NCBI GenBank assembly: GCA_964409475.1
Contig: CAYPDL010000006.1
Coordinates: 242 to 64,241, forward strand
Direction of reading: 5' to 3'
Length of the DNA: 64,000 nucleotides
Source of the DNA: an uncultured Desulfobacteraceae bacterium
GTDB lineage: Bacteria > Desulfobacterota > DSM-4660 > Desulfatiglandales > Desulfatiglandaceae
In this document: in pieces, positions 3,172-61,370 of the stretch
Layout: the number at the start of each line of letters is the position of its first letter
How positions within the stretch are numbered: the stretch's first letter is position 1
Notes under the pieces: model-generated
Databases searched by the model: none
The model's input: the letters and a program-made list of their open reading frames with translations, nothing else
Told to the model about the DNA's origin: nothing
Made by a program: the position numbers and the translations under genes

Positions 3172-3558
3172 CTTCAAGGGCTCCTTATTGTATGGTTAAT
3201 GAAGGAACAGCCTCCGACGGATTGCCGGTATATGATAGTAACCCAGTTTGATTTTCTCGAAAACAAAAAAGTAGCCGACCTTAATCTATTCTCCCGAACA
3301 ATTGCGAAACATCAAAAGGCTTCTAACGAAATCCCACATTTCGAAATCCATATGAAAAAACAGAATTGTTTAAAAACCAGTTCTACCAATCTCGCTTGGC
3401 TCAAGAAGCTGAAAACACTTGGAGCACTTCTGCCAAAGACAGGATCGAGGACCCGCAAACAGCGAACAGCATCCCGCTGCGAGAAGCCAGGAACCGTTTT
3501 TCATTGACTCATAGAGGAGTTAGATATAAACAGCGTAAGGGTTCGCAGGTTCTGGGTT

Positions 3559-3574
3559 TCCCGCTGCAGCGGGA
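3559..3574. promoter_or_regulatory. perfect 16-bp palindrome tcccgctgcagcggga upstream of the Cys-rich ORF
   Basis: Exact dyad read directly from the sequence, about 110 nt upstream of the ATG at 3683. Function unknown. Confidence 0.25.
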
Positions 3575-3682
3575 TTCAAGATTGGAAACTTTGACGATCT
3601 TGAACCCCATATCATCGAGGGTCCCTGCCATTGATGCTGACCCTCGAAAAATGAGTTGTTTTCATAACTCGGGTGAATCGTA

Positions 3683-4186
3683 ATGCAGAAGCAGGATGAA
3701 AACACCGTTTACAATCGCATGGACAGGGCTTTGAGACTCTATCAGGAACATGGAGAGAGCATTCTCGCAACGCCTGAGATGCAGCGGCTCCTGGGCCTCT
3801 ATGATTCTTCCATAGGACATACGCAGGAGACGGTACGACAGGCCGGGATGGCTGCCGCCTGCGGCCTCTGTGCGGAACAGATCGGGAGTTGCTGTTTTGA
3901 GGAGGTGGAGACATGGTACGATCCGATGCTCCTTCTCATCAATCGATTGTTGAGCGCCGATCTCCCCCGATCTCGAGAGATACCGGGCCAGTGCCTCTTC
4001 CTTGGAGAGGAGGGGTGTCGATTGCGGGCCCGCTATTCGTTCTGCCTGAATTATTTCTGCCCCACGCTCAAGCTGCGACTGAGCCCCGGTTTGATGGATA
4101 TCACGCTGGCTGCCATTGGACAGGAGCTTGCCGCTGGATGGGAATTGGAACAGGCGCTGTATCGATGGCTTAAGAAATCGTCCTGA
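3683..4186 (+). CDS. cysteine-cluster protein (YkgJ/CxxCxxCC-like)
   Basis: 167-aa ORF with CGLCAEQIGSCC followed by CLFLGEEGCRL and FCLNYFC. This Cys spacing resembles the putative Zn/Fe-chelating YkgJ family. Confidence 0.5.
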   Translation: MQKQDENTVYNRMDRALRLYQEHGESILATPEMQRLLGLYDSSIGHTQETVRQAGMAAACGLCAEQIGSCCFEEVETWYDPMLLLINRLLSADLPRSREIPGQCLFLGEEGCRLRARYSFCLNYFCPTLKLRLSPGLMDITLAAIGQELAAGWELEQALYRWLKKSS

Positions 4187-4199
4187 AAGGGCGGTCCGA

Positions 4200-4403
4200 A
4201 TGGCCTGCAAATGGTATCATATCTGTCCTCTCAGACGGTTTGAGAGATTGGGTCTGATCGACCGACGCCGGGCAGATGCGTACTGTAAATCCGATGCCCA
4301 TTGGAAGGCATGCAGGCGCTATCAACTTGAGGAAGAGGGAATCCCTCATCCGGACAACCTGTTGCCCGACGGCCGGATATGCCATGAGCTGGTTGCTGAT
4401 TAA
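4200..4403 (+). CDS. small Cys-containing conserved-looking protein (67 aa)
   Basis: Internal ATG of ORF 4116..4403, located 14 nt after the previous stop. MACKWYHICPLRRFERLGLID..YCKSDAHWKACRRY..PHPDNLLPDG. Confidence 0.4.
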   Translation: MACKWYHICPLRRFERLGLIDRRRADAYCKSDAHWKACRRYQLEEEGIPHPDNLLPDGRICHELVAD

Positions 4404-4464
4404 AATGAAACCTCTTGATGAATGTGCCTGATACAAAGCACAACGATCGAACAGCGAGGAATTG

Positions 4465-4689
4465 ATGGAATCTCGTAAAGATCAGGCTTCGGGAGTTTTC
4501 CCACGAAAGCAGACAGTCGCCCTCCTCCTGGCCCTGATTCTGCTCACTGGGTTTGGGTGTTCGGGCGTCCCCCCGGCAGGGGGTAAGCCCCACAATGAAT
4601 CAGCAATCCCGCTGACGGGATTTTCAACCAGCAACCAGAGCGAGTTTCATATGAGTTTCTTGACCTGCTCAGTCAGGGCTGAAGTTTAA
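4465..4689 (+). CDS. possible small secreted/lipoprotein-like ORF
   Basis: Hydrophobic segment VALLLALILLTGFGCSG. Weak start context and no family recognised. Confidence 0.2.
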   Translation: MESRKDQASGVFPRKQTVALLLALILLTGFGCSGVPPAGGKPHNESAIPLTGFSTSNQSEFHMSFLTCSVRAEV

Positions 4690-4708
4690 AAATTTTTCGC
4701 AGTCCCTC

Positions 4709-4737
4709 TTGACAGTTTCGAATTCCGAATTACTTAT
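4709..4737 (+). promoter_or_regulatory. possible promoter upstream of the hsp20 pair
   Basis: TTGACA at 4709-4714, a 17-nt spacer, then a weak -10 (acttat). Followed by a 7-bp hairpin ggacctt/aaggtcc at 4760-4777 in the 115-nt leader. Confidence 0.25.
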
Positions 4738-4853
4738 TTTACAACATTCATGGATCGGTGGACCTTCTGAAAGGTCCTGAAGAGGATGCTGCTTTTGGGG
4801 CTTTTCACCACCAACCAACCTAACCAATTATATAATGAAAGGAGGGATGGTTC

Positions 4854-6045: not shown

Positions 6046-6285
6046 TCACTCAGGTAGAACCAGATTCCAATAGGTTGCCGACCTTTCGTCAAGAATACCC
6101 GGAGGTCGTCCATTTAAAGCTTGCCGGAATTGCCGGTCCGAAAAATGCCGGCGCATGGTCGGTATATCTGTGTCGAGACAGTATTGCATGAAATACACAA
6201 GAAACCGGTCTTTGTCGCGAATCAGTTTCTCGGGCGACTCAAACCAATTTACACGCAGGGCGATCTGTCTGAGTTGTTCGTTCAT
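6046..6285 (-). CDS. small hypothetical protein downstream of the AbiEii-like gene
   Basis: Internal ATG (MNEQLRQIALRVNWFESPEKL...) 30 nt after the upstream stop. The longer 107-aa version would overlap the upstream gene by 55 nt. No family recognised. Confidence 0.45.
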   Translation of the reverse strand: MNEQLRQIALRVNWFESPEKLIRDKDRFLVYFMQYCLDTDIPTMRRHFSDRQFRQALNGRPPGILDERSATYWNLVLPE

Positions 6286-6314
6286 GGTCACAAATGGTTG
6301 GGATCCTGCTGAAT

Positions 6315-6980
6315 TTATTGTCCAATAATGCCCGTACAGGCCATTTCGGGGATATTGGCGAGGTCGCATGTTTTCACTTTTAAGATCAAATCCTTTTTGA
6401 TGTCATCAGCCAATGTCATGACGTTGCCGTTTTCAAAAAAGCAGAGCGCCTTCAATGTCAAAATCGAATTGTATTGCCGCCCATAAATCGCCCGCGCGGC
6501 GCCGATGCCGTGCTCCAGGGTCAGATCTGTCTTTGTTATGATCGAATGAATATCAATATAGTCTTTGGCCTCCGCCCGTTGGCTCACCGTAGCACATTTC
6601 ATCCCCAGCAAATCCACAAGGGAAGCGACGGATAATCCATTAGCCGCCTTGTCAGGCCGATGAATCTGTCCAAGTCTCAGTCCGCCGAAAAAACTTAATT
6701 TGACCGGTCGATCAAAACCGGCGACCGTCATCAACAGGGTAAGGGTATTATAACTTTCCTGCAACCGCCTCCCCAGGCCCAGAAAATCCATTTCTCGCAC
6801 CAACTGATCCGTCGTAAAATCAGTGCTGGTGAAAAAGTCAAAGTCAACGGACTCACGATGAGCAATACGCAAGGCAATTGCCGTGCCCCCATATAGCACG
6901 AAACGCGCCGACACCTTCCCCAATAGGGGCCAGAGTTCCTTCTGAACCTGGGATAAGATCGATAATCGAAATATTTCCAT
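6315..6980 (-). CDS. AbiEii/AbiGii-type nucleotidyltransferase (DUF1814-like)
   Basis: FVLYGGTAIALRIAHRESVDFDFF has the GG[TS] plus DxD nucleotidyltransferase motifs in the arrangement typical of AbiEii toxins, with a later AKDYIDIHSI. Start taken at ATG 6980 (MEIFRLS). The ORF track extends to a TTG at 7019. Confidence 0.6.
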   Translation of the reverse strand: MEIFRLSILSQVQKELWPLLGKVSARFVLYGGTAIALRIAHRESVDFDFFTSTDFTTDQLVREMDFLGLGRRLQESYNTLTLLMTVAGFDRPVKLSFFGGLRLGQIHRPDKAANGLSVASLVDLLGMKCATVSQRAEAKDYIDIHSIITKTDLTLEHGIGAARAIYGRQYNSILTLKALCFFENGNVMTLADDIKKDLILKVKTCDLANIPEMACTGIIGQ

Positions 6981-7128
6981 TATGTTATCACCATTGATGA
7001 CACCACGGGCGATGCCCAAAGCCCAACGGTTCCCGAGAATTCATGACGTTCCGATTTCCCGTTGACTGTTTAATCCATCGAAACCATACCACAATCGACA
7101 TTTTTTTCAAACACGAAACAGACAAATA

Positions 7129-8798: not shown

Positions 8799-9071
8799 TC
8801 AGAAATTATACGGCCGGCCGTCTGACTGGCATCCATAAAACCCTGTTATTTCATCTCCGAGCGATTCAAGGAAATCCTTCAGTTCATGTTCGTCGTCAAA
8901 TTTCATGACACCCACATGGCCGGTCGCATGTCCTACGGAGCGATAGGCCGCTGAATCGGCGCATTCACTGGAAAAGGCCTCCAGGTCGCCCTGGTATTTC
9001 TCGCATAGTTCCGTCTCACTGACAACCGCTGTTGCATGCCCCTAACTATCAAAATAGACATAGTAGATCAT
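8799..9071 (-). pseudogene. small ORF interrupted by an in-frame TAG at codon 10
   Basis: The frame reads MIYYVYFDS-TAG-GHATAVVSETELCEKYQGDLEAFSSECADSAAYRSVGHATGHVGVMKFDDEHELKDFLESLGDEITGFYGCQSDGRPYNF-stop. No alternative start lies just after the TAG (9042-9044 on the + strand). Confidence 0.3.
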
Positions 9072-9076
9072 TAATG

Positions 9077-9181
9077 TTGATGCATTTGTAAAAAGTCAAA
9101 AAAGCGAGATTCGTACTTAATGATTTCAATAGGTTATCCATGCCAAAAAGGCCGAATTCGGACTTTTTACGAGACCATCAA
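9077..9181 (+). repeat. 105-nt dispersed element, copy 1 (hairpin-forming, about 21-nt terminal inverted repeats)
   Basis: Aligns without gaps to the reverse complement of 61074-61178, with 13 mismatches by hand count. Ends are TTGATGCATTTGTAAAAAGTC ... GGACTTTTTACGAGACCATCAA. Confidence 0.85.
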
Positions 9182-9419
9182 TGTTTACCCCCAACAGATT
9201 CAGAATGAATGGCGGCCATGGTTAGCCCCTTCAGAATTTTCAATATATCAGGAGTGGGGGACTGATGCCAGAGAATTCCATGGGCTGGATATTGGATACT
9301 GGTTTCTGGTTGAAACGGGGGTGCGGGTGTGTTAAAGGTTTTGACAGAAAATTCATGAAACGCCAATGAGGACCTCACCCAACAGAAGATATGTTTATAA
9401 AGAAAGGAAGAACATACGG

Positions 9420-9839
9420 ATGAAGAAACGTTCGATCAGGATAATGTGGCCATGTTTAGCGGTATTTCTGTTTTTTTTGACCGGATGCGGCGCCATGATC
9501 GTGGCCGGCGCCGGCGCAGCAGCCGGCATTGCAGGCTACAAGTATTACCAGGGGTCCTTGACCGTCCTTTACAAGGCCCCTTTCCAGAAAACCTGGGATG
9601 CGTCCCTGACGGCCCTGAAGCGAATGGACTGCAAGATCGAAAGTTCCAAAAACGACATCACCTCAGGGACCATCTGGGGCAAATTCAGCGATGACAAGGT
9701 AATCAGCCTCTCGCTGACATACAAATCCGTGAACGAGACGGAGGCTGTGATCAGGGTGGGCGCCTTGGGTGAAAAGGAGGCCGCCGTGATTGTCAAAGAT
9801 GAGATCGGAAAGGCCCTTTCAGAGGCAGGGGGGAAATAA
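9420..9839 (+). CDS. putative lipoprotein
   Basis: Internal ATG gives MKKRSIRIMWPCLAVFLFFLTGCGA, a signal peptide plus LTGC lipobox. 139 aa. Confidence 0.7.
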   Translation: MKKRSIRIMWPCLAVFLFFLTGCGAMIVAGAGAAAGIAGYKYYQGSLTVLYKAPFQKTWDASLTALKRMDCKIESSKNDITSGTIWGKFSDDKVISLSLTYKSVNETEAVIRVGALGEKEAAVIVKDEIGKALSEAGGK

Positions 9840-11467: not shown

Positions 11468-11587
11468 GGCACAAGGCACAAGGCATGAGGCAAAGAAGTG
11501 TGGAGTGTAGCGTGTGGAGTTAGAAATTGAAATCGGAATTTTTCATTTTTAAACTTTAGGCACTCCAAACTCGTAACTTCAAACTTG
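11468..11587. repeat. heptamer tracts plus an about 75-nt composite repeat (copy A)
   Basis: ggcacaa ggcacaa ggcatga ggcaaag (11468-11495) and gtgtgga gtgtagc gtgtgga (11498-11518). 11512-11587 is homologous to the reverse complement of 46180-46252. Confidence 0.85.
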
Positions 11588-11700
11588 AAAACCAGTATCC
11601 AGAATTGAGTACCAATAACCCGTTTCATGCAGGTTCCGGGAACTGAGAATGCCTCAATTCCTGAATCTCTCAATTCCTAAATTGGAAATTATCACAAAGC

Positions 11701-32461: not shown

Positions 32462-32637
32462 AGGCCAAACCTCGCTTAAGTGATCTAAAATGCCTAAAGT
32501 GAGCTAAAGTTTAAATTTGGATTTTTTATTTCCACAACTTTAGTCACTTCAAACTTCACACTTCAAACTGCCATTTCAAGAGAGTTAAAGTGCCTAAAGT
32601 TTAAGCGCAGTGCCATTGTTTGGACTACGCCGACTGC
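32462..32637. repeat. repeat-filled 176-nt spacer between the livH-like and livM-like genes
   Basis: cacttca aacttca cacttca aactg (32545-32570). gcctaaagt/gagctaaagt (32492-32510). gtgcctaaagttt (32590-32602) is the reverse complement of 11551-11563. Confidence 0.85.
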
Positions 32638-45375: not shown

Positions 45376-45490
45376 GATGATTGTTGATTGCTGATTGGAA
45401 AGATTAAACAAATGACGACCCATGACCCCGTAATTTTTGGCGCCCAACCTGCAACTCGCAACTTTTAACTCGTAACTCCCAACTCGTAAC
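45376..45490. repeat. two heptamer tracts in the rseP/tsaB spacer
   Basis: gatgatt gttgatt gctgatt (45376-45396) and aactcgc aactttt aactcgt aactccc aactcgt aac (45453-45490). Confidence 0.9.
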
Positions 45491-45503
45491 GTGTCACTCT
45501 CAT

Positions 45504-46202
45504 ATGATCTTGGCCATCAACACGTCTACCGTCCAATTCTCCCTTGCCCTTCTCTCTGAAAGCGGCGGCCTCGTAGCAGAGCACCTGATGTCTGAGGGAA
45601 AGGGACATTTCGGGAGCCTGATGCCGACCCTTCACTTTCTGCTTAATTCCTCAGAACGGGAGATCCGTGAGGTAAAATGCATTTCAGTTGCAACCGGCCC
45701 GGGAAGCTTTACCGGTCTAAGGATAGGACTCTCTCTTTCAAAAGGATTGTGCCAGGCCCTTCGGGTCCCCATTGTCGGCATATCGACCCTTGAGGCCATG
45801 GCGGTTCAAGCCCCATGTGCGGGTCTGCCCGTAGTCCCCATTCTCCATTCGAGGAAAGGCGAGGTCTTTACTGCCCGATTTATCTGGGAAAATGAAAGAG
45901 GCCTCAAAAGGACAGGCGAAGATACCTGGGTCCGATTTGATGATGCCCCTCTCCTGTTCCAGGAGCCGTCCCTGTTTGTAGGGAACGATTACCCGACCCA
46001 GGGGACACGGCTGAAGGATCTCCTGGGAGAGCGCGCCCTGCTGGCGCCGCTTCACTGCTGGTCTCTGAGGGCCTCTGCCGTCGGATCACTGGCGCTTGAG
46101 AGATTCCTTCAGGGTGACCTGGATGATCCCTGTGCCCTCAACCCGGTCTATCTCCGTCCCCCCGATATCCGACCCAATCCAAGTTTGAAGTTACGAGTTT
46201 GA
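45504..46202 (+). CDS. tsaB: tRNA t6A biosynthesis protein TsaB
   Basis: 232-aa ORF with ILAINTST and ATGPGSFTGLRIG. The last 7 codons are encoded by the heptamer repeat. Confidence 0.82.
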   Translation: MILAINTSTVQFSLALLSESGGLVAEHLMSEGKGHFGSLMPTLHFLLNSSEREIREVKCISVATGPGSFTGLRIGLSLSKGLCQALRVPIVGISTLEAMAVQAPCAGLPVVPILHSRKGEVFTARFIWENERGLKRTGEDTWVRFDDAPLLFQEPSLFVGNDYPTQGTRLKDLLGERALLAPLHCWSLRASAVGSLALERFLQGDLDDPCALNPVYLRPPDIRPNPSLKLRV

Positions 46203-46252
46203 AGTGCCGAAGTTAAGAAAAAAATTCCGACTTAAACTTTTTAACTCCACAC
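46180..46252. repeat. about 75-nt composite repeat (copy B, inverted relative to 11512-11587)
   Basis: Its reverse complement, gtgtggagttaaaaagtttaagtcggaatttttttcttaacttcggcacttcaaactcgtaacttcaaacttg, aligns to 11512-11587 with small indels. The block caaactcgtaacttcaaacttg is identical. Confidence 0.85.
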
Positions 46253-51623: not shown

Positions 51624-51635
51624 ATATTCTTGTGT

Positions 51636-51729
51636 AATTGAGGAATTGCGAATTCAGGGATTCAGGAATTAAAACCAGTTCTCATCCATTCATTCCTCAA
51701 TCCCTTAATCCCTAAATTCCTAAATTCAT
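51636..51729. repeat. repeat-filled pheS/pheT spacer (GGAAT/ATTCC words, imperfect hairpin)
   Basis: aattgagg aattgcg aattcaggg attcagg aatt ... cattcctc aatccctt aatccct aaattcct aaattc. The left and right halves are roughly complementary. Confidence 0.85.
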
Positions 51730-52737
51730 CTAAAATTGTCTCAAAAACCGCATATCGTTTTTGAAAAAGAGCTGAATGTCATCGATCCCGAATTTGAGCA
51801 TGGCAATCCTCTCGATCCCCATCCCGAATGCAAAACCGGAGTAGAGATCCGGGTCGTAATCCACGAATCGGTACACCTCAGGATCAACCATCCCGGATCC
51901 CAATATCTCCAGCCAGCCTGTGTGGGAACAGGTCCTGCACCCGGCTCCTTTGCACATAACGCAGCGGATATCCACCTCAGCGCTCGGCTCTGTAAAGGGG
52001 AAAAAGCTGGGTCTGAAACGAAGGCTGGTATCGCTGCCGAACATCTGGTGGACAAAACTCGTAAGGGTCCCCTTCAGATCGCCAAAGGTAACCCCTTTGT
52101 CCACCAGGAGGCCTTCCACCTGATGGAACATGGGGGTATGTGTCACGTCTGAATCGCGTCGATAGACCTTGCCGGGGGCAATAATGCTGACAGGCGGCTT
52201 GTGGGATTCCATCACGCGGACCTGCATGGGCGAGGTGTGGGTTCGCAGGACGACATTGTCAGAAATGTAAAAGGTATCCTGCATATCCCGGGCAGGATGG
52301 TCTTTGGGTATGTTGAGCGCCTCGAAATTGTAATAGTCCAGCTCTACATTGGGTCCTTTCACCACCCTGAATCCCATTCTCGAAAAGATCCTGCAGACAT
52401 CTTGTATGACTGACGTGATGGGGTGATGGTGTCCACGAAGAGGCTCTCTTCCCGGCAGGGTCAGGTCCATAAAACCGGCCCCGCTTCCCTTTCTGGAACC
52501 CAGAAGCTCCTTTGCCTGCTGAAAGCGTTCTGAGAGACTTTTTTTGATAAGGTTTGCTAACTTCCCGATCTCAGGACGTTCTTCGGCCGTCAGGCTGCCG
52601 ACACCCTTCATGAACGACGTAAGCTGACCCTTTTTGCCTAAATATTTGATCCGGAATTGCTCGAGCGCCGGGAGATCCGTAATCGCGTCAATTTCCTTCA
52701 GGGCGCGTGCTTCCAGTTCAAGGAGTTGCTCTTTCAT
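51730..52737 (-). CDS. pheS: phenylalanine--tRNA ligase alpha subunit
   Basis: 335-aa ORF with class II motifs (HPARDMQDTF; FRPSFFPFTEPS; GFAFGMGIERI). Confidence 0.95.
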   Translation of the reverse strand: MKEQLLELEARALKEIDAITDLPALEQFRIKYLGKKGQLTSFMKGVGSLTAEERPEIGKLANLIKKSLSERFQQAKELLGSRKGSGAGFMDLTLPGREPLRGHHHPITSVIQDVCRIFSRMGFRVVKGPNVELDYYNFEALNIPKDHPARDMQDTFYISDNVVLRTHTSPMQVRVMESHKPPVSIIAPGKVYRRDSDVTHTPMFHQVEGLLVDKGVTFGDLKGTLTSFVHQMFGSDTSLRFRPSFFPFTEPSAEVDIRCVMCKGAGCRTCSHTGWLEILGSGMVDPEVYRFVDYDPDLYSGFAFGMGIERIAMLKFGIDDIQLFFKNDMRFLRQF

Positions 52738-53111: not shown

Positions 53112-53388
53112 GGTTAAACCTCTTTTATGGTATTAGCGAAACTCTGTCTCATGTCACACCTGAGCCATTACTTCACGATGCAGTTTATGGTTGCCCGGTG
53201 CCGGATACAATGATGAATAGGCTCTGTTGCAAATTCCAATATCCAGTACAGGACATCCCCTACCCGTTTACTGCCGATGCAATACATCGGCTCAACATTC
53301 ACGATCTTGGCCCACAGCGCCAACTGTCAGATTTCAAGTTTATCAATAAATAGCCTCAAAAAGGCACAAAACGCACAGAAACCAAAAT

Positions 53389-53436
53389 CTGATTCCTGAA
53401 TTCCTCAGTTCCTCAATCGCTGAATTCCCGATTCCG
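53389..53436. repeat. octamer tract in the rpmI/rplT spacer
   Basis: ctgattcc tgaattcc tcagttcc tcaatcgc tgaattcc cgattccg, a strict 8-nt phase. Confidence 0.9.
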
Positions 53437-59615: not shown

Positions 59616-60533
59616 TTATACAGGCCTGGCCAGGGGGCGCACCGAAAGGACAGGGCATTGGGCCTGACGGATCACGCGGTCCGTGGTCGAACCCACCAAC
59701 AATGTCTCAACCAGCCCGTGGCCCCTTATCCCCAGGACGATCAAATCAATATCATTGACCAAAGCGTACTGAGTCAGCTCCTCGTGTGGCTGGCCGGCCA
59801 ACAGGGCCGTCGTATGCCGGCACCAATGACCGGCCTCTTCAGAGATCATTTTGTTGAGCATGGCATCCAGTGGTTCTCGCATACGCTCCCGAAGATCTTC
59901 CGACGGCTTCACGTCCTGCTTGAATAGATTTTTGTAGAGGGGCGGTTCAATCACGTGGGCCAGGTGAAGCTCGGATTCAAATTCCTGGGCAAGGCTGAGC
60001 GCATATTCAAAGGCCAGGAGGGAGTCTGCCGAAAAGTCGCATCCCACAAGGATCTTCTTGATCCGGATCTCCTGGTCGGAAGGGGCCCCGATCTCTTTTT
60101 CCGGACTTCGAATCGACATCAACGGGCAGGGAAGGGTCTGGATGAGTCGCTCGGTCACAGACCCCAGAATCACCCGTTTCAACCCCGATCGGCCATGGGT
60201 TGCAGCGATGGCAAGATCGATCTGCTTCTCCCCGGCAAATCGCGTGATCTCGTCCACCGGATGGCCCACGACGACAAGCTGCTCCACATCCAGCGATTGT
60301 TCCCCCATCAGTTGATTGAGTTGTTCCTGGGCATATTCTGTGACCGCCTTCTGCTCGTCCACCCAGTGTACCACCGCCTCATCGTATGCCGCGATCGGGG
60401 TGATATCGACCACATGGCAGACATAGAGCTTTGCATTGAATTCCTTGGCCATTCGAATGGCATATGGGATAGCGTAGTTGGAGAAATCCGAGAAGTCTGT
60501 GGTACACAAAATGTTCTTCAATTGAATTCTCAT
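59616..60533 (-). CDS. tandem universal stress protein (2 x UspA domain)
   Basis: Start at MRIQLKNILCTTDFS (aaggaggg SD). Two USP units, each ending in G..GHG...LGS(V/T)T..V. Confidence 0.8.
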   Translation of the reverse strand: MRIQLKNILCTTDFSDFSNYAIPYAIRMAKEFNAKLYVCHVVDITPIAAYDEAVVHWVDEQKAVTEYAQEQLNQLMGEQSLDVEQLVVVGHPVDEITRFAGEKQIDLAIAATHGRSGLKRVILGSVTERLIQTLPCPLMSIRSPEKEIGAPSDQEIRIKKILVGCDFSADSLLAFEYALSLAQEFESELHLAHVIEPPLYKNLFKQDVKPSEDLRERMREPLDAMLNKMISEEAGHWCRHTTALLAGQPHEELTQYALVNDIDLIVLGIRGHGLVETLLVGSTTDRVIRQAQCPVLSVRPLARPV

Positions 60534-60675
60534 AAGATAAACCCTCCTTTCCTTAAACCCTGTCCCCTGATATCGCGCCCCTGCGGCCGGCAGCGCAATC
60601 ACTGGAGACAATTCACATTATGAGCGCGCTTCCCAAGACCCGGAAAACAGAAAATCGGATTCTTGGTTGAAAAGT

Positions 60676-60691
60676 TGCAACTTGAATGCCA
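60676..60691 (-). promoter_or_regulatory. sigma-54 (-24/-12) promoter candidate for the USP gene
   Basis: The minus strand reads TGGCATTCAAGTTGCA against the consensus TGGCACG-N4-TTGCW. The GG and GC are at the correct spacing. It lies about 140 nt upstream of the USP ATG. Confidence 0.55.
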
Positions 60692-60899
60692 AAAATCCAT
60701 ACTCAATCTCTGTACGGGCAACACGCCAGGATCACGATAAAAAATGGAAATCTGCATATTGAGCTAGAATGCCGATGAACATTTCCCGTCAACTATTTTT
60801 TCATACTGTAAGCCCTCCGGTCGTACGCCTTTCCATCATTTTTCAATCCTGTCGTTTCCGATTCCCAGCCCGGCGACAGGCCCATGGGAACTTACCTAA

Positions 60900-61046
60900 C
60901 TCAAGTTTCGCACCCTTCATTAGGCTATCATTTCAATAAATTTGGCATGATACGTCTATACGGGACGACTAAAACTCAATTTGGAAATAGCCAGCCCCGG
61001 ACCTGATACCTCCCGGTCTGGAACGCGAAGGGGTGCGAAACTTGAG
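60900..61046. mobile_element. MITE-like element: perfect 16-bp terminal inverted repeats plus an 8-bp target-site-like duplication
   Basis: CTCAAGTTTCGCACCC (60900-60915) is the exact reverse complement of 61031-61046. It is flanked on both sides by TTACCTAA (60892-60899 and 61047-61054). The 115-nt interior has no ORF and several hairpins (for example ccggacc-N11-ggtctgg). Confidence 0.65.
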
Positions 61047-61073
61047 TTACCTAATATTATGCGGCTCCAAGTT

Positions 61074-61178
61074 TTGATGGTCTCGTAAAAAGTGCGAGTT
61101 CGGCTCTTTTAGCATGGATAACCTGGTAAAATCATCAGGTGCGAATTTCGCTTTTTTGACTTTTTACGAATGCATCAA
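61074..61178 (-). repeat. 105-nt dispersed element, copy 2
   Basis: Its reverse complement aligns gap-free to 9077-9181 (13 mismatches in 105 by hand count). It lies 27 nt from the MITE-like element. Confidence 0.85.
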
Positions 61179-61370
61179 TATTCAGACAATACAAATCCAG
61201 GAGGGGGAGCAGAATTTGCCTTATCGGACATCCCTTGATTGTCCCTTTTAACGCCGCTACCAAAAAAATGTCTTGACAATACAATCAGGGCGTGATCACA
61301 TATTAAGCGTCTCCATAACGTGGCGCAATAAGAAATTGCGCTTTCAAGATAAACCGAATAGTGACAAAAA

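Follow-up and report, generated by a model that had tools for sequence, protein, structure and literature searches.

The Correia elements of Neisseria (CREE/NEMIS) are MITEs of ∼100–155 bp, with terminal inverted repeats of ∼20–26 bp and a central IHF-binding site. They occupy intergenic regions at high copy number and duplicate the dinucleotide TA, and experiments have demonstrated that they have promoter and RNase III functions; we know of no parent insertion sequence (IS) for these elements. The RIP/BIME-1 and ERIC/IRU repeats of Escherichia coli are intergenic imperfect palindromes, RIP carrying an IHF site between its palindromic units, and REP units are mobilised by RAYT enzymes. To our knowledge, the RIP/BIME-1 and ERIC/IRU repeats have neither a target-site duplication nor a DDE-transposase partner.

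Here we describe a family of repeats from Desulfobacterota that shares with IS-derived bacterial MITEs a length of ∼100 nt, a lack of coding sequence, terminal inverted repeats, a duplication of fixed length, many intergenic copies per genome and arms that recur unchanged at the ends of an IS with a transposase gene. Its terminal repeats, its central IHF site (here a consensus match) and its intergenic abundance recall the Correia elements, from which it differs in having no sequence in common with them, in duplicating 6 bp (AANNTT) instead of TA and in having an identifiable candidate for its parent IS. RIP/BIME-1 and ERIC/IRU repeats are likewise intergenic imperfect palindromes; the present family, for its part, duplicates its target and has a DDE-transposase partner.

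The starting point was a 64,000-nt stretch of DNA from an uncultured Desulfobacteraceae bacterium (assembly GCA_964409475.1, contig CAYPDL010000006.1, positions 242–64,241), referred to below as the window. A preliminary description had noted that a 105-nt unit occurs in it twice, and had left open whether this was a MITE, a structured small RNA or a shared regulatory cassette. We conclude that both sequences are very probably copies of a MITE, which a DDE transposase acting in trans would mobilise. The target-site duplication and the DDE partner favour the first of the three possibilities; Rfam, the arm spacers and RNAalifold speak against the second, and the lack of any oriented signal against the third.

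Results

Two copies of a 101-nt element in the window

Realignment of 9077–9181 (+) with the reverse complement of 61074–61178 reproduced the reported gap-free match of two oppositely oriented copies, with 13 mismatches in 105 positions (87.6% identity); directly beyond the bounds of this alignment, identity between the two copies falls to background. The terminal 21-mer arm pattern occurs in the window only at these arms, against 0.00 occurrences expected from shuffles of the window. The two 21-nt termini differ from one another at four positions in each copy, and not at three as first counted.

A target-site duplication, which the preliminary description had failed to find, is present: copy 1 is bounded on both sides by a perfect AATGTT, and the hexamers flanking copy 2 match at four of six positions. 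Because of this 6-bp duplication, the outer TT/AA, previously taken as the termini of the unit, are to be counted with the target, which leaves an element of 101 nt rather than 105. It runs from GATG to CATC, has arms of 19 nt of the form GATG-N5-GTAAAAAGTC and has no coding capacity. The features of the two copies are as follows.

9073–9078, no strand: left target-site duplication of copy 1 (AATGTT), identical to 9180–9185
9079–9179, + strand: MITE copy 1, 101 nt (GATG...CATC), orientation set by the central IHF-like motif, GC 35%
9079–9097, + strand: left terminal arm of copy 1, GATGCATTTGTAAAAAGTC (GATG-N5-GTAAAAAGTC), an arm type that also ends the IS1182-like ISs in L242, L244 and L259
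9124–9136, + strand: central IHF-like motif of copy 1, TTTCAATAGGTTA, matching 8 of the 9 specified positions of WATCARNNNNTTR
9161–9179, − strand: right terminal arm of copy 1; its reverse complement, GATGGTCTCGTAAAAAGTC, is the consensus arm of the family
9180–9185, no strand: right target-site duplication of copy 1 (AATGTT), identical to 9073–9078
61070–61075, no strand: left flank hexamer of copy 2 (AGTTTT), decayed target-site duplication, 4/6 match to 61177–61182
61076–61176, − strand: MITE copy 2, 101 nt, orientation opposite to copy 1
61076–61094, + strand: terminal arm of copy 2, GATGGTCTCGTAAAAAGTG
61119–61131, − strand: degraded IHF-like motif of copy 2, TTTTACCAGGTTA, 6/9 match
61158–61176, − strand: terminal arm of copy 2 (reverse complement GATGCATTCGTAAAAAGTC)
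61177–61182, no strand: right flank hexamer of copy 2 (AATATT), decayed target-site duplication, 4/6 match

As had been reported, the copies lie in low-GC non-coding gaps: their GC content is 35–39%, that of the intergenic gaps around them ∼45% and that of the window 52.8%. The flanking genes are also those named before, copy 1 having as neighbours a PAS sensor gene and a DUF3568 lipoprotein gene, and copy 2 a tandem-domain Usp gene and a DUF4198 gene. Promoter and terminator scans found neither a sigma-70-like promoter nor an intrinsic-terminator-like site inside either copy.

The only ORF that touches copy 1 (9120–9335, +; 71 codons) has its ATG inside the element and extends into the flank. 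There is no Pfam hit on record for it, and it is also called as a gene on same-population metagenome contigs, e.g. at 1201–1416 of L251; the insertion probably gave rise to this ORF, whose call as a gene would then be spurious.

Other repeats and a possible toxin–antitoxin module were seen in the window. An unrelated inverted-repeat element at 60892–61054, 20 nt from copy 2, has 24-nt arms (TTACCTAACTCAAGTTTCGCACCC) that are 92% complementary and surround 115 nt; since two same-population metagenome contigs (L246 and L247) begin inside it, this element too seems to be multi-copy, and it is probably another MITE. A nucleotidyltransferase toxin gene of the AbiEii type (6046–7019, −; PF08843, E 1e-11), some 2 kb away from copy 1, overlaps at its 3′ end a small same-strand ORF (6046–6369), with which it possibly forms a type IV toxin–antitoxin module. 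Short A/T-rich repeats with an 8-nt period (ACTTTAGGCAC..., AATTCCTGAATTCCTC...) recur in the window in direct and inverted form, at the following places.

1976–2005: A/T-rich 8-nt-period repeats
11512–11691: the same
32537–32569: the same
45456–45495: the same
46171–46252: the same
51635–51734: the same
53384–53434: the same

Runs of ACTTTAGGCACTTTAG, which resemble these repeats, were found inside long (∼320-nt) relatives of the MITE in L194 and L229.

The element belongs to a family widespread in Desulfobacterota

A search for further copies, as the preliminary description had recommended, was productive. When a genome collection was scanned with a pattern consisting of one full arm and the core of the other, at least 120 stretches matched, nearly all of them from Desulfobacterota. 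MAGs and assemblies of Desulfobacterales, Desulfobulbia and Syntrophales predominate among the genome matches listed, which include the named genomes Desulfamplus magnetovallimortis, Candidatus Electrothrix, strain NaphS2 and Desulfobacterium sp. N47. The few matches in other phyla are due to chance or, possibly, to mis-binned contigs. Among the matches listed, MAG S08.Bin136 alone accounts for at least 15 loci, some with two or three copies, and several other genomes for at least four to seven loci each. A metagenome scan with the consensus arm yielded at least 120 further stretches. No match to copy 1 was found by blastn among the plasmids of PLSDB, and among viral contigs the paired-arm pattern matched once (L121) and the consensus arm not at all.

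Lengths in the genome set have modes of 101 and 110 nt; in the metagenome set they range from 71 to 225 nt, with a mode of 133. Interiors are strongly different or unrelated between subfamilies. The subfamily of the window is closest, among the matches listed, to copies in L088, L061 (NaphS2) and L142. Part of the arm sequence was prescribed by the patterns used, so that the conservation of the arm core is to some extent a product of the search; partner arms that were not forced by the search are 79–100% conserved at the specified positions in the metagenome set.

Neither Rfam nor the searchable full-text literature yielded a description of this MITE family, which is apparently undescribed so far.

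Some copies stand in tandem, as head-to-tail pairs with nothing but one shared hexamer or heptamer between them; such pairs occur in L110 (7505–7711; ...CATC AAGATTT GATG...) and in L009, L039, L046, L089 and L120. They could have arisen by insertion beside an existing copy, for which duplication of the target provides a new AANNTT site, or by duplication of whole units. In L089, two family arms also stand 1254 bp apart (3554–4807) with the near-matching hexamers ATATTT and ATACTT, and by eye a PIN-type toxin gene and an antitoxin gene lie between them. This arrangement may represent two neighbouring MITEs or a composite able to move the toxin–antitoxin pair.

Insertion duplicates a 6-bp A/T-rich target

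When the flanks of 126 copies were aligned, the conserved arm was seen to start at GATG, and the six bases that precede it recur after CATC. In the genome set, 60 of 104 copies among the matches listed have a perfect 6-bp duplication, against a mean of 2.4 and a maximum of 7 in shuffled pairings. Duplications of 2–5 bp occur at chance level, and no length between 2 and 10 bp shows an excess comparable to that at 6 bp. Perfect 7-bp matches number 10 (genome set, matches listed); each necessarily contains a 6-bp one, and they may be chance extensions or occasional 7-bp duplications. The result was replicated in the metagenome set, for which the pattern had specified just one of the two arms: a partner arm was present for 82 of 103 arms among the matches listed, and 52 of the 82 pairs have a perfect 6-bp duplication (null expectation, 2.0). 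The consensus of the target is AANNTT.

This duplication also accounts for the odd ‘termini’ of copies that belong to one subfamily within one MAG. Each such terminus equals the opposite flank (AAAGAA in L071, AACTGA in L020 and TATATT in L067) because each belongs to its own, different duplication.

Empty sites were reconstructed for 217 copies and searched against all fetched loci. Two paralogous filled/empty pairs, each from a single metagenome contig, show precise insertion. In L184, ...CTT AAAATT [110-nt element] AAAATT AATAG... stands against ...CTT GAAATT AATAT...; in L203, ...CTT AATTAT [133-nt element] AATTAT GGGATAAG... stands against ...CTT AATTGT GGGATAAA.... No empty counterpart of either window copy came to light: a search of metagenomes with an exact 22-mer of the reconstructed empty site of copy 1 gave no match, and all same-population contigs, recovered by way of the flanking DUF4198 and DUF3568 proteins, are filled at both positions. 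Of six metagenome contigs from the same population, three are broken within copy 2, as a multi-copy repeat would lead one to expect.

The same arms bound insertion sequences with an IS1182-like transposase

The window encodes no homologue of the transposase described below. In the first 120 loci, no transposase adjoins an arm, solitary arms included, and all-against-all clustering of ORFs from these loci revealed no multi-copy transposase. Pairs of arms 300–5000 bp apart with matching hexamers were considered as candidate parent ISs and proved to be neighbouring MITEs around ordinary genes.

A partner was found in L148, a 1.6-kb metagenome contig, in which an ORF ending 10 nt before a right arm encodes the C-terminal part of a DDE transposase, with matches to Pfam DDE_Tnp_1_6 (E 1e-17) and to the IS1182 family of NCBIfam (E 4e-15). 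Homologues of this protein are common in assemblies of Desulfobacteraceae and other Thermodesulfobacteriota. ISs with such arms, complete or partial, stand on the contigs of these homologues and are listed here.

L244, 1964–3864, 1901 bp: arms GATGGTATCGTAAAAAGTA and GATGCTCTCGTAAAAAGTC, perfect AAGGTT duplication
L242, 2742–4430, 1689 bp: family arms, flanks AATAAT/AATATT
L259, 1439–3341, 1903 bp: identical arms, without duplication
L243 and L260: partial ISs, right ends only

The frame of the L242 IS, 489 codons long and interrupted by one in-frame TGA, encodes the domains DUF772, DDE_Tnp_1 and DDE_Tnp_1_6. For the full-length transposase (∼490 aa), the best NCBIfam match is NF033551, the IS1182 family (155 bits, E 2.8e-45), followed by ISNCY_1 with 64 bits. 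We call the partner IS1182-like because its NF033551 score lies below the curated cut-off of 270, and the family assignment should be taken as approximate. In length (1.7–1.9 kb), in having terminal inverted repeats and in its DUF772, DDE_Tnp_1 and DDE_Tnp_1_6 domains, the partner agrees with the IS1182 family; it differs in its score and in a transposase that is often split into overlapping orfA and orfB. A further difference lies in the duplication, since ISPse1, a characterised member of the family, makes 4-bp repeats (PMC3281130), so that a duplication of 6 bp marks a distinct subgroup.

All transposase frames of the ISs inspected are interrupted (L259, 1570–3304; L260, 1–1340; L242, 2874–4343; L244, 2096–3837). 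The orfA frame (DUF772) overlaps orfB (DDE) by 56 nt in L259 and by 52 nt in L260, the L244 gene contains frame changes, and many database homologues are orfB products of 276–280 aa. The split frames could reflect programmed frameshifting or widespread decay. The ISNCY/ISDol1 group of ISfinder (Desulfococcus oleovorans; 1.6–1.9 kb; 6–7-bp repeats) may, we presume, be the same group as these partner ISs.

In L148 (545–1013), the IS1182-like element seems to be inserted into an ISAs1-like transposase gene; the minus-strand ORFs 551–823 and 831–1013 resemble ISAs1 fragments by eye, and the insertion would thus be a nested one.

The arms are probably constrained as DNA and not as a hairpin

Both copies fold, on either strand, into one long hairpin (z −3.5 to −4.3, about −4), as the preliminary description had proposed. 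Strong folding of both strands is what might be expected if the element were a structured small RNA or a cis-regulatory RNA, in which the terminal hairpin and two small internal ones were functional and the copies were paralogous RNA genes. Inspection by eye of the two window copies added two apparently compensatory changes in the internal hairpins (ACUUA/UAGGU versus ACCUG/CAGGU, and GCC/GGC versus GCU/AGC).

The family argues otherwise. Within each arm, GATG at the tip and GTAAAAAGTC are conserved, and the 5-nt spacer between them varies. Selection on the hairpin should make the left and right spacers covary. At spacer positions 5–9, left–right complementarity was observed in 40, 34, 47, 59 and 58 of 105 members (matches listed), against 42.7, 36.6, 47.2, 57.9 and 54.8 expected from shuffled partners; compensatory change in the terminal stem, which the earlier account had suggested looking for, is thus at the level of shuffling. 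No spacer position covaries, which favours a constraint at the level of DNA over one on the hairpin. The pattern suggests that each arm is bound by protein on its own, as double-stranded DNA.

RNAalifold, applied to 29 non-redundant members of 99–102 nt, returned only eight invariant core pairs, with none covarying and no interior helix. Rfam gave no match for the whole window at gathering score, and around copy 1 (8950–9450, E ≤ 10) only unrelated families with best E values of 0.43 to 4.6, in keeping with the earlier statement that the unit resembles no known RNA family. With no covariation, no RNAalifold helix and no Rfam match, the compensatory-looking differences between the window copies are without support at the level of the family. 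The unrelated interiors of the subfamilies and their spread in length, the unbiased orientation relative to genes (see below) and the lack of promoter-like or terminator-like sites in the element also weigh against a functional RNA, which would in addition leave the 6-bp duplication and the empty sites unexplained. We regard this explanation as very improbable.

The same data bear on other kinds of palindromic repeat. A REP/BIME-type palindrome, spread by a RAYT (Y1, IS200/IS605-like) enzyme acting on single-stranded hairpin DNA, would also be short, intergenic and at times in tandem pairs. REP elements are not known to make a duplication, whereas this family has one of 6 bp; its arms do not covary as those of such a hairpin would; and the enzyme encoded by ISs with these arms is of the DDE and not of the Y1 type. 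Contradicted by both the duplication and the DDE partner, a REP/BIME origin has next to no probability. An IS200/IS605-type end is ruled out on the same two grounds. An integron attC site was rejected, its core sites not fitting and the cassette context being absent.

Distribution relative to genes

With genes called simply from ORFs, 98 of 105 copies among the matches listed (93%) are intergenic, as compared with 15% for random placement. A gene was called on both sides of 84 of the intergenic copies, of which 57 lie between tandem, 14 between divergent and 13 between convergent genes; these numbers match the background of intergenic types (488, 114 and 118, respectively). Relative to tandem genes, copies among the matches listed have the same orientation in 21 cases and the opposite in 20. 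A selfish element with A/T-rich targets, eliminated where it lands in genes, would be expected to show this distribution. That both window copies point towards the next gene on their strand, earlier offered as a functional cue, therefore finds no echo in the family, in either orientation or type of intergenic region.

The preliminary description had also linked copy 2 to the Usp gene (59616–60611) by way of a sigma-54 promoter. The promoter-like sequence is real, a sigma-54-type −24/−12 sequence (TGGCAT-N5-TTGCA; 60676–60691, −) standing upstream of the gene; it is separate from the element, ∼385 nt from the nearer end of copy 2 and ∼430 nt from its motif.

A central IHF-like motif at a fixed position

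The IHF-like sequence remarked on in copy 1 proved to be a family-wide feature at a fixed position. Scored as at least eight of the nine specified positions of WATCARNNNNTTR, the motif is present in 77 of 105 members (matches listed), where 19.6 were expected, and at most 30 obtained, after shuffling of the interiors. Of the 44 copies of the 105-nt form that have the motif, 42 share one offset, and a matching offset is found in the 114-nt form. In both full ISs examined, the same motif lies 28–41 nt in from the left end, and the right ends are without it. Binding of IHF at the motif is an inference from the consensus match. On the simplest reading, a host DNA-bending protein would assist assembly of the transposition complex; such help would matter most for a 100-bp element, because its two ends must meet. 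The degradation of the copy 2 motif, to six of nine positions, fits the decay of its duplication.

A motif whose position is fixed across subfamilies with otherwise unrelated interiors might instead reflect exaptation of the MITE by the host as a regulatory cassette, the IHF-like site bending DNA for promoters such as the sigma-54-type one of the Usp gene, or organising the nucleoid in the manner of RIP/BIME-1. The position of copy 2 upstream of a canonical sigma-54-type sequence, and the fixation of both copies in all same-population contigs, would suit such a role. Nevertheless, the parent ISs carry the same motif inside their left end, and transposition would therefore suffice to account for its conservation. 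In copy 2, moreover, the motif is degraded and, at its distance from the promoter, well beyond the usual position of an IHF site, and the family shows neither a preference for promoter-side intergenic regions nor an orientation bias. We consider exaptation as a cassette quite improbable.

Discussion

Judged by sequence, the element is a MITE on every count by which such elements are recognised, and as such it is an ordinary kind of selfish DNA. The sequence signatures lead us to propose that the MITE moves by cut-and-paste, or by copying, with a DDE transposase provided in trans. The likely mobilisers are the 1.7–1.9 kb ISs that have exactly these arms and an IS1182-like transposase. The transposase would bind each arm separately, as double-stranded DNA, and make a staggered 6-bp cut at A/T-rich AANNTT sites, repair of which would give rise to the 6-bp duplication. 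At the IHF-like site, a host bending protein probably folds the ∼100-bp element, so that one transposase complex could hold both arms.

The two copies in the 64-kb window are old, fixed insertions in A/T-rich intergenic DNA, and in copy 2 decay has reached the duplication as well as the IHF-like motif. We see no sign that either copy has been selected to serve the DUF3568 lipoprotein gene or the Usp gene, and the two look-alike sequences need neither an RNA nor a regulatory explanation. The IHF-like site might have been co-opted across Desulfobacterota as a portable bending or regulatory module, or the transcribed hairpin might act as an RNA-processing site, by analogy with the Correia elements; we think this improbable. 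Were it true, expression would be rewired by insertions of this kind, examples being the two fixed copies that lie upstream of the lipoprotein gene (DUF3568) and of the Usp gene.

The MITE family is very widespread in Desulfobacterota, extending over sulfate reducers, cable bacteria and the magnetotactic Desulfamplus. Recognising it removes recurrent spurious calls of small ORFs and explains some of the assembly breaks in these genomes, and its copies are a ready marker for strain typing and for the dating of insertions. In this family, a MITE can be tied to an IS1182-like transposase whose target, AANNTT, is defined and 6 bp long, and the conserved IHF-like site may mark a dependence on a host factor.
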